From Botryllus schlosseri (Eukaryota), in assembly GCA_051294905.1 (NCBI GenBank), contig CM119372.1, positions 22,012,001-22,076,000 of the forward strand: DNA of 64,000 nt, given 5' to 3'. Shown one piece after another: positions 18,519 to 21,380 of the stretch. Positions within the stretch are counted from its first letter, which is position 1; every line of letters starts with the position of its first letter. A model generated the notes under the pieces. That model searched no databases. It was not told the DNA's origin and saw nothing but the letters and a program-made list of their open reading frames with translations. A program made the translations under genes and the position numbers.

Positions 18519-21380
18519 TTACTTCTCACATTCGATATCGTCGGCCCACTTCACCCCCTTTGTTGGTTTGGCCTGATATGCCGGCAGTGCTATCGCCGCC
18601 ATTTTAACGGCTTCGGGTAGTATCTTTTTCCCTTCGTGAATCAAATTGCTATTCTTGATTGACCACATACGTTCTTTTTTATTACTTCCCCACCTCAATG
18701 ACGGATGTAATTTCTGTTTGTTTTCGTGGCACTGCGGGTGGCATTGTAATAGGATACATATCACTATTAGCACTGCTATACCGATGGCTGCTGGAATCAA
18801 TAATGGCTTGAACAGTGATCCAAATACGCTTCCAAATATACCTCCGACTGTTTTACCAACGCCACTTACTATCTTCTCGCCTTCATTAATAACTGTCTCC
18901 AACCCAGTTCCGACACCTTTAGCAGTTTTGACAACTGCAGTTCCGAGACCTTTAGCTATTTTACCTGACGCGTCAAGCACCCGTTCAATTCCCGATCTTC
19001 GACCATACCATTTTTTTTCTTCATGTTTTATAGTCATACTTGCATTCTTGATCTTTTTCAATTCTCGGTGTATAGCATTATTCTCTATCTTTCTTATCGT
19101 CAGATTGCTATTGGTATCGTTGACAAATGATTCTAGCGGCTTTTCGAATTCTTCAATGTTGACATTTTCCACAGGTATTTTCATTCTCCTTGCAAGTGTT
19201 TTCAGTTGTATTATACCCTCTATAATATTCAATTCAAATTTGACATTACTGGGTACATGTATGTTCACTCGCAGCAATTCCCTGCTAACCATATCATCAG
19301 CCGCTAGATGAACTCGCGCCATTCTTTCCAGCATGTGTATTTCTGAAACTAGGTTCTTCAAAGTAATGGAACCATCTCCATTTCCCATCTGCACTAAGGT
19401 CGAAAGAGCTTTGTCATCTTTGTCTGCTAGCCGAGCTGTTTCAAATAACTTTACTTGCAAACTGGTTAACATCTTCATTAGTTCAGGCGTCATTTTGTGC
19501 ATATGCCGAAGATCTACCGCAGTTCTTGCTAGATTCTTTGCATCATTACGAAACCTTTCTCTAATTTCTTTTTCCAGGCTTGCCACATGTGCATTGACGG
19601 CCGATTCCATTTTAGTGGAACCCCATTGTCCTGTAGTTGCCAATCGTATAATTCTGGAACCCACCGCTAGCACTTGCCTCTTTGACCTTGTCTGATTGTT
19701 AGCAGAGTCCGATTTTCCTGTCATTGTCTTAAAACAAAATGGCTGAACAGGATATTTTTCTTGCACATTCACATAGTAACGTGTGTCATTCCAGTACCTA
19801 AGTTTTGTAATTAGAGGAACAAAAGGATGGTCGCACTTATATTGTCGTGCTTTCTTGGTGTTTTCCGTTTGTAACAGTATTAAATCCTCTTCCAAAACTC
19901 CGTCATAACCTCCGAATCTTGGTGGCCAATCGGTTTCGTAGTCCGACCAATATGTATCCATAATCGATGCATTGCCTTTATTAATTCCTCTTCTCGGTAG
20001 TCCCAAGCGACATAAAGGAGTTCCGGATATGTTCTTGTTAGGTATTCCATAAGTTACTTTCAACCGTAGTCGATTATTCCAGACTCTATCGTGGTCTCCC
20101 GTATAAACAACCGACCCCCATCTATGTAGCATGTGAAACGTAGCGAACGGTTTAAACCTTTTAACCGTCTTTACTGCCCATGTCTTATAGTATTGTCGTG
20201 TTTCTGTCAATGTACTATTGATTTCGTCCTTTTTTATACTGGATATATTCGGGTTTGCCCAGATATTGTTAACGTATTCTTCCATCAAAGCCAACTTTAT
20301 CCTTGCCAAATCCTCAAATATAAATTCAGCACGGGTCCGTTGTATGTGTATTGCCGCACTTCCTGTAATGCATTTCATTTCTTCATGCATTCTTTTAGGG
20401 CTCGTTTTATTAAATCGCTTATCTGTTTTTCCCCAGGTCATGACTAGATACGGATCGGCCTTTAGTGTCTCGGGTCGTATTCGAGACGATTCTTTGCCAT
20501 AGAACGAACAATCTATAGTCCATTCTGTCCTTATTTTCAGCGCATGGTGAGTCCATTTGTCGAAAAATCCTTGCCACAAAGGTAGTTTACTGTCATAGGA
20601 ATAATTGATTGAATATGACCAACTTATTCGGCTGAGTTGCCACCTAATTCTCCTCTCTTTAAAGTGCACTAGCCTCTTGGTAAAGGCTTCTTTCTTAGTC
20701 GTACAATTAGCATGTACTTCGGCAAATTCTTGGAATAGCAACGAAATTTGTATGCGATATGCCGTGAAGAATTCCACCAAATTGAGGACTGTAATATCTT
20801 CTTCATTCCATGACCTCACATTATTCGATTCCGGATCCCAATTCCAATCATACCATTGATATGGTTTATTGTTCCGAACATAAATCACGCTCCGATCAAA
20901 TACTAGAGGATGCAATTCAGGCAATATCTCAGATCTTTTCCGGTATGTTGTCGAGTTGTTTGTTTTGCATTCGGAGATATATTCGTCATGGGACGAGAAT
21001 ATTGTGGTATTAGGGAAGTATTTTTCCACATAATTCACAGATCTTGATCTTACTATTCCATATGTACTAGTTGTAAAATCCGAAAGAGTGTCATCCTTTT
21101 CGTCACATTCCGATGTCATGTTGTACTTGACTTCCTCCCATCCGGCTATAGGTACCCATTCGTGAGTAGCGTTATTGCCGTGTAACGATTCATCATAGAC
21201 TTCAGTCTGTAGCCAGTGTACCTTGTCTTCTATGCCAACAATTGTAGATCCGATCCCGGGATTATAGGTTGTTTTTTCATCCGTCTGGTTCGTTTTCGAT
21301 CCTTTCGCGTCCAGCAGAACGCAATAAATGACCATGATAATCCAGCAATAGACAACAGGAGCAATGCGAACGTGGCCCAT
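18519..21380 (-). CDS. env: Env-like type I membrane glycoprotein, 953 aa
   Basis: N-terminal signal peptide, many NxS/T sequons, furin site RSKR (19677-19688, aa 565-568), helical region, Gly-rich amphipathic segment, TM LLIPAAIGIAVLIVICILL, cytoplasmic tail; lies downstream of pol. Confidence 0.85.
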   Translation of the reverse strand: MGHVRIAPVVYCWIIMVIYCVLLDAKGSKTNQTDEKTTYNPGIGSTIVGIEDKVHWLQTEVYDESLHGNNATHEWVPIAGWEEVKYNMTSECDEKDDTLSDFTTSTYGIVRSRSVNYVEKYFPNTTIFSSHDEYISECKTNNSTTYRKRSEILPELHPLVFDRSVIYVRNNKPYQWYDWNWDPESNNVRSWNEEDITVLNLVEFFTAYRIQISLLFQEFAEVHANCTTKKEAFTKRLVHFKERRIRWQLSRISWSYSINYSYDSKLPLWQGFFDKWTHHALKIRTEWTIDCSFYGKESSRIRPETLKADPYLVMTWGKTDKRFNKTSPKRMHEEMKCITGSAAIHIQRTRAEFIFEDLARIKLALMEEYVNNIWANPNISSIKKDEINSTLTETRQYYKTWAVKTVKRFKPFATFHMLHRWGSVVYTGDHDRVWNNRLRLKVTYGIPNKNISGTPLCRLGLPRRGINKGNASIMDTYWSDYETDWPPRFGGYDGVLEEDLILLQTENTKKARQYKCDHPFVPLITKLRYWNDTRYYVNVQEKYPVQPFCFKTMTGKSDSANNQTRSKRQVLAVGSRIIRLATTGQWGSTKMESAVNAHVASLEKEIRERFRNDAKNLARTAVDLRHMHKMTPELMKMLTSLQVKLFETARLADKDDKALSTLVQMGNGDGSITLKNLVSEIHMLERMARVHLAADDMVSRELLRVNIHVPSNVKFELNIIEGIIQLKTLARRMKIPVENVNIEEFEKPLESFVNDTNSNLTIRKIENNAIHRELKKIKNASMTIKHEEKKWYGRRSGIERVLDASGKIAKGLGTAVVKTAKGVGTGLETVINEGEKIVSGVGKTVGGIFGSVFGSLFKPLLIPAAIGIAVLIVICILLQCHPQCHENKQKLHPSLRWGSNKKERMWSIKNSNLIHEGKKILPEAVKMAAIALPAYQAKPTKGVKWADDIECEK

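Follow-up and report, generated by a model that had tools for sequence, protein, structure and literature searches.

An Intact Envelope Gene of a Probable Class I-Type Fusogen Family in a Reverse-Transcribing Element of Botryllus schlosseri

The Envelope Gene

The window analysed here, 64,000 nucleotides of the tunicate Botryllus schlosseri (assembly GCA_051294905.1, contig CM119372.1, positions 22,012,001 to 22,076,000), carries an open reading frame of 953 codons plus stop whose product is designated P0001. The first-pass annotation had reported the stop-free codons without giving a strand; the frame is read on the minus strand, from 21380 to 18519, while the plus-strand frame over the same interval is full of stops. 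The probability of 953 open codons arising by chance at the local composition is ~2e-30. The envelope (env) ORF and its parts are as follows.

18519..21380, minus strand: env ORF (ORF translation), 953 aa plus stop, comprising signal peptide, surface subunit of ~540 aa, furin site, 291-aa Cys-free ectodomain of the transmembrane (TM) subunit, TM anchor and 75-aa tail
20610..21077, minus strand: conserved N-terminal block of the surface subunit, aa 102-257, with W/G/P/C motifs common to four relatives (39 bits, E 8e-15, against a profile built without P0001; shuffled domains reach at most 1.6 bits)
19677..19688, minus strand: furin-type site RSKR, aa 565-568 (motif; RxKR aligned in 5/5 full-length family members)
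18804..19676, minus strand: post-furin ectodomain, with candidate fusion peptide, predicted long helices at ~aa 586-775, glycosylated linker and Gly-rich amphipathic membrane-proximal region at ~aa 800-859 (low-confidence secondary structure)
18747..18803, minus strand: TM anchor, aa 860-878, followed by a juxtamembrane Cys/HPxC motif (hydropathy and alignment)

Hydropathy gives P0001 the layout of a type I membrane precursor, with a signal peptide (N-terminal hydrophobic stretch at ~aa 4-26) and one C-terminal TM at ~aa 860-878, and a motif scan finds RSKR at aa 565-568 as the single RxKR, both as proposed at first pass. The protein contains 17 N-glycan sequons and 14 cysteines, none of which falls between aa 550 and 874, so that the downstream ectodomain does lack cysteine as had been claimed. 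Two further features noted earlier were recovered: the post-cleavage peptide is weakly hydrophobic (KD19 = 0.58), and a Gly-rich amphipathic stretch precedes the TM, with 12 Gly within the final 50 ectodomain residues and a helical hydrophobic moment of ~0.5.

The Host Element

The env gene sits in a compact gene block behind a pol encoding reverse transcriptase (RT) and RNase H. The remaining features of the element are listed below.

36762..38585, minus strand: 5' piece of pol, G-patch (PF01585, E 6e-13) and RT (PF00078, E 6e-20) by Pfam; start cut off by a host repeat
23310..36761: 13.4-kb insertion splitting pol, palindromic over nearly its whole length, AGTAGT ends, 6-bp target duplication at 23304-23309 and 36762-36767
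22225..23309, minus strand: 3' piece of pol, RNase H (PF17917, E 2e-23) then Tpt1/KptA (PF01885, E 2e-9) by Pfam
21552..22232, minus strand: 226-aa ORF between pol and env; no integrase by Pfam or PDB
21230..21526, minus strand: small membrane-protein ORF, 80-98 aa, one TM then a basic cluster, overlapping the env start in another frame
17512..18222, minus strand: basic 236-aa ORF downstream of env, with C-terminal Cys/His cluster
14226..15786, minus strand: three accessory ORFs (195, 144 and 126 aa), the last two paralogues (28% over 108 aa, E 4e-14)
13539..13829: three tandem repeats of 91 bp immediately ahead of the leader copy, putatively promoter-like
13476..13499, minus strand: exact copy, single in the window, of the 24-nt chordate spliced leader (sequence identity)
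11142..13043, minus strand: gag-like ORF, cut by a host repeat with 632 aa remaining; coiled coil and the late-domain-like motifs PPSY and PSAP

The minus strand presents, in succession, pol 5' piece, palindrome, pol 3' piece, 226-aa ORF, small TM ORF, env, 236-aa ORF, a gap of 1.7 kb devoid of long ORFs, three accessory ORFs, 91-bp repeats, leader copy and gag-like ORF. By its sequence the RT is of the Ortervirales type, its best solved matches (8r0s, Ty3 and foamy virus RT) being near-equal, and no protease was seen in the pol 5' piece. Pol ends in Tpt1/KptA (22225-22600, minus strand), which occupies the place of an integrase; clear alignment is confined to the C-terminal half of Tpt1, and the match to a solved Tpt1 reaches the ORF stop (aa 258-367 of 370 against 67-178 of 180). 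Integrase and transposase families were absent from the 140 ORFs of at least 75 aa in the window (mirrored palindrome arm left out); no integrase motif was seen in the element and no transposase motif in the window. No LTR pair was found; both element ends are lost in host repeats.

Several smaller observations accompany these genes. The 226-aa ORF contains a stretch that by eye resembles the Tpt1/ADP-ribosyltransferase motif 'LYHGT...I..EGL.P', a likeness with no database support, and the small TM ORF (21230-21526) over the env start recalls the arrangement of Vpu and NB. A short Cys/His-rich segment at 16050-16250 (minus strand), in the 1.7-kb gap, is possibly a small or broken zinc-finger ORF. 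The paralogous accessory ORFs (14226-15108, minus strand) look helical, and the few RNA reads at ~14900-14980 come from a sibling copy. The arms of the palindrome, ~6.25 kb each with 9 mismatches in 6056 nt, contain ORF pieces that appear OB-fold-like by eye (24248-24898, no Pfam match) and 41-bp tandem repeats; from its end features we take the insertion to be Polinton-like, and related ends occur at 60600-63750. Elsewhere in the window lie a separate RT fragment, probably of a LINE (3676-5285, plus strand), and an exon of a host alkylglycerol monooxygenase-like gene (44941-45231, minus strand).

The Spliced Leader Copy

The 24-mer at 13499-13476 equals the 'Chordata 1' leader consensus minus its first base, as given in an excerpt of PMC3795323, and was matched by 0 of 100 shuffles. 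It has no GT donor directly after it and lies ~430 nt ahead of the start of the gag-like ORF. That ORF owes its label to its place, its motifs and its coiled coil, with no capsid domain seen. A pile of RNA reads occupies 13467-13499. Run X24 contributes 1,715 reads whose match ends at 13499 and which vary on their other side; the sequence continuing past 13499 is presumably the template-switch adapter. The reads of this pile are host mRNAs, not expression of the element. Some 15 single-cell RNA reads at 13104-13200, bearing several differences, derive from a sibling copy of the leader/TATA region.

A Family of Envelope Proteins

Comparison of P0001 with Pfam, NCBIfam and PDB sequences gave no real match, a PHROGs search gave a weak coiled-coil match only, and a literature search (supplements outside it) yielded no description of its envelope family. 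A full HMMER scan of 1.84 billion representative sequences returned seven matches. Four are full-length proteins (P0002-P0005; 769-1193 aa, 22-27% identity, E 5e-11 to 4e-7), all unnamed and drawn from Logan or ENA contigs, genomic context being read for P0001 alone; the other three are two C-terminal fragments and one Gly-rich match, discarded as due to chance. P0004 bears a long N-terminal extension with a weak match to an EGF-like domain (E 0.03).

A profile built from P0002-P0005 only matches P0001 at aa 102-257 (39 bits) and aa 512-892 (99 bits), against 1.6 bits for the best shuffled domain in 300 shuffles and 0.2 for the best reversed one. Homology therefore covers the surface subunit and extends beyond the coiled coil and TM. 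Two conserved blocks surround a variable insert, which is longer in P0001 than in its relatives. In all five full-length members RxKR aligns at one place, the ectodomain behind it spans 275-292 aa and contains no more than one Cys, and 7-12 Gly lie ahead of the TM; the missing cysteines are thus a family trait. The peptide behind the cut is strongly hydrophobic (~2.1-2.3) in three of the four relatives, middling in P0003 (1.01) and weak in P0001, which makes the weak peptide P0001's own trait and not that of the family.

P0001 and P0002-P0005 form a family that, at the level of sequence, is matched by no named envelope family searched, and we count it as new by its sequence and cysteine layout. 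The new fusogen family raised as a possibility at first pass is accordingly upheld as an unnamed family, no homology to a described Env family or to a cellular protein having been found in Pfam, PDB, NCBIfam or the 1.84-billion-sequence scan.

Fusion Class and Rival Identities

The class I plan, as set out in an excerpt of PMC11468914, places a hydrophobic peptide directly after a conserved furin site, followed by long segments with heptad bias and a TM. Since the P0001 family shows this layout, the peptide being strongly hydrophobic in three of its five members, it likely represents a class I fusogen, which would fuse membranes in the manner of the HIV and influenza envelope proteins; the earlier suggestion of class I fusion, made from the furin site and helical TM subunit, gains support as a class I-like architecture in linear features. 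In the best register, 50-75% of a and d positions are hydrophobic compared with 21-44% elsewhere, an enrichment seen in 5/5 members and inflated by taking the best of seven registers, and the post-furin region is helical in structure models of low confidence (pLDDT ~32). Language-model searches, whose ten best matches listed in each case are viral surface glycoproteins or unnamed, with scores below 0.9, serve as leads only: whole P0001 brings up herpesvirus gB first (0.89, 181 shared features), together with rhabdovirus and monjiviricete G, the best ten forming one family or clan, while aa 500-890 bring up coronavirus S2 first (0.83) among mixed families.

The whole-protein search is the starting point for a different identity, in which P0001 is a very divergent gB-like class III fusogen, as in many invertebrate errantiviruses, with fusion loops in the aromatic-rich N-terminal block, an incidental furin cut and the long helix as domain III. 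The 953-aa length, the amphipathic membrane-proximal region and the weak fusion peptide of P0001 agree with this, and tunicate errantiviruses carry gB-type env (excerpt of PMC13524379). We nevertheless regard it as quite unlikely: PF00606-type matches are lacking (E up to 1-10 for P0001 and up to 1 for its relatives), the top language-model match shifts to S2 when aa 500-890 are searched, and gB-type env keeps cysteine bridges and does not always conserve a furin site (PMC13524379, excerpt), whereas here the site is invariant, is followed by a hydrophobic peptide in most members (three of four relatives), and precedes ~290 aa with 0-1 Cys. Nor was the first-pass hint of gB in the Gly-rich membrane-proximal region borne out. 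What weak Pfam matches this stretch has (E 0.02-0.09) involve foamy Env and the stem of flaviviruses, not gB, and amphipathic membrane-proximal helices are predicted for foamy Env too (PMC11468914, excerpt), so the stretch does not point to gB.

Foamy virus Env (PF03408) is itself the closest in build, with ~950-990 aa, a late furin site, a large surface part with an insert ahead of the cut and two predicted amphipathic membrane-proximal helices, as described in the excerpt of PMC11468914. P0001 might then be a remote member of an F/foamy-Env/lokiretrovirus-Env superfamily, beyond sequence detection, its conserved blocks flanking a receptor-binding insert that, like the one of foamy Env, lies upstream of the furin site. 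This we hold to be unlikely. PF03408 does match the membrane-proximal region and TM (E 0.05-0.09), but below threshold, at 11-12 bits against a cut-off of 27 and over ~45 residues only; foamy Env has 20 ectodomain cysteines, including some in the C-terminal subunit (PMC11468914, excerpt), where P0001 is Cys-free; and P0001 differs further in having no significant sequence match, no second (leader) furin site and a host element in which no integrase is seen. The F-type envelopes of errantiviruses, lokiretroviruses and Oikopleura Tor3b/4b share with P0001 a signal peptide, RxKR, fusion peptide, coiled coil and TM, and their elements share a Ty3-like RT and RNase H and occurrence in tunicates, but they match PF00523-like F or bear a cysteine set, neither of which applies to P0001 (excerpts of PMC13524379, PMC7947760 and PMC4402516). 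Lokiretrovirus Env matches F0 (PMC7947760, excerpt), and Pfam gave no F0 or Baculo_F match for P0001 or its relatives. Tor3b/4b Env has seven cysteines with FxG and N[LV]G (PMC4402516, excerpt), a set absent from the P0001 TM subunit, in which no CX6CC, CX7C or Tor3b/4b motif was found. Errantiviruses and lokiretroviruses have integrase and LTRs (PMC13524379 and PMC7947760, excerpts); here no integrase is seen and Pol ends in Tpt1.

Orthoretroviral envelopes of gamma and beta type resemble P0001 in their SU/furin/TM plan and helical TM subunit, and the gag late-domain motifs are also common to both. Their TM ectodomain, usually 170-200 aa, is shorter than the ~290 aa of P0001, which has neither a CX6CC nor a CX7C loop. 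Gamma-type Env is defined by CX6CC in TM and CXXC in SU, a combination that P0001 does not show, and beta-type and lentiviral Env by a two-cysteine loop in the TM ectodomain, for which the 0-1 Cys in 5/5 members leave no place. Foamy Env, like P0001, lacks CX6CC. Beyond these families, the element resembles Caulimoviridae in the best PDB match of its RT (8r0s, E 1.5e-11, which we take to be the cauliflower mosaic virus enzyme), the lack of any integrase seen and the putatively permuted order of the integrated copy, and differs from them in its enveloped design, animal host and G-patch and Tpt1 domains. Because the Ty3 and foamy RTs score nearly as high as 8r0s, no kinship with Caulimoviridae is shown.

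Intactness and Expression

All ten ORF pieces of the element are stop-free, over 3,578 codons of which 2,625 lie outside env. The first-pass description of gag and pol as disrupted holds as far as insertion and end truncation are concerned; otherwise every ORF piece is open. With the damage confined to insertion and truncation, env is not specially preserved, and its intactness is best put down to the likely youth of the whole copy rather than to upkeep by the host. Between the two origins first proposed for its intactness, recent insertion fits better than co-option, given that the other ORFs are equally open and env RNA is near zero.

Co-option of env by the host in a syncytin-like manner, for example for cell fusion or antiviral defence, is in our judgment highly unlikely. 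The intact ORF would agree with it, as would the presence of the 5.8-kb stretch 17500-23300, or part of it, in 20 runs from nine studies (the best of which may be the source) and the contigs of one other sample, which cover env at ~98-99% identity with no indel listed. However, the rest of the element is as open as env, so that this is not an intact env in a decayed provirus, and five of the six env differences listed for that sample are non-synonymous, against a neutral expectation of ~67% (random transitions), a sample too small to rule selection out. Over env, RNA depth averages 0-0.19 in three runs (3-12% of each sampled, tissue unspecified), compared with ~135 in the leader bin of one; run X21 has no leader pile and is probably uninformative for env RNA. 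With env RNA near zero, co-option is unsupported.

We conclude that P0001 is encoded by a real, intact env gene, carried by what is likely a young copy, since inactivated, of an enveloped reverse-transcribing element, and that P0001 is probably a class I-type fusogen whose family is undescribed.

A Proposed Model for Fusion and Replication

In the proposed mechanism, the precursor would enter the ER, be glycosylated and be cut by furin after RSKR. The large surface subunit, with its two conserved blocks around a variable insert, would bind the receptor and would be held to the TM subunit non-covalently, since the latter has no ectodomain cysteine. Once triggered, the protein would drive the peptide behind the cut into the target membrane and refold its long helices as a trimer of hairpins, with the Gly-rich amphipathic helices resting on the membrane of the particle itself.

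The leader copy suggests how the element may have replicated. Its RNA may have been trans-spliced and then reverse-transcribed, leaving the copy behind; if so, the leader marks the 5' end of the element, and the order pol-env-accessory-leader-gag is a permuted one, such as a circle or two copies in tandem would yield. The order thus suggests a permuted or circular intermediate; alternatively, it could derive from a transposase-bounded unit with gag at its tail. It is possible, and we put it forward tentatively, that P0001 is the envelope protein of an animal virus, enveloped, integrase-less and pararetrovirus-like, whose RNA is capped by host trans-splicing and copied to circular DNA, with Tpt1 tidying RNA/DNA ends, and which entered the germ line in permuted form. 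Its fusogen would then be a new class I structural family, with a cysteine-free, all-helical fusion subunit of 290 residues, and a third type of invertebrate retroelement envelope besides F and gB.

Implications

A 2026 survey describes the envelopes of invertebrate Ty3/gypsy elements as F-type or gB-type and, in the excerpt of PMC13524379, required an integrase for inclusion; elements like that of P0001 are consequently not covered by it. A third family, free of cysteine and with relatives in several public data sets, would broaden the sampling of where class I fusogens and retroviral Env come from, and the P0001 family offers a concrete target for structure work. An element with no integrase seen, a Pol ending in Tpt1 and an internal leader bears on the question of enveloped reverse-transcribing animal viruses beyond retroviruses and hepadnaviruses.
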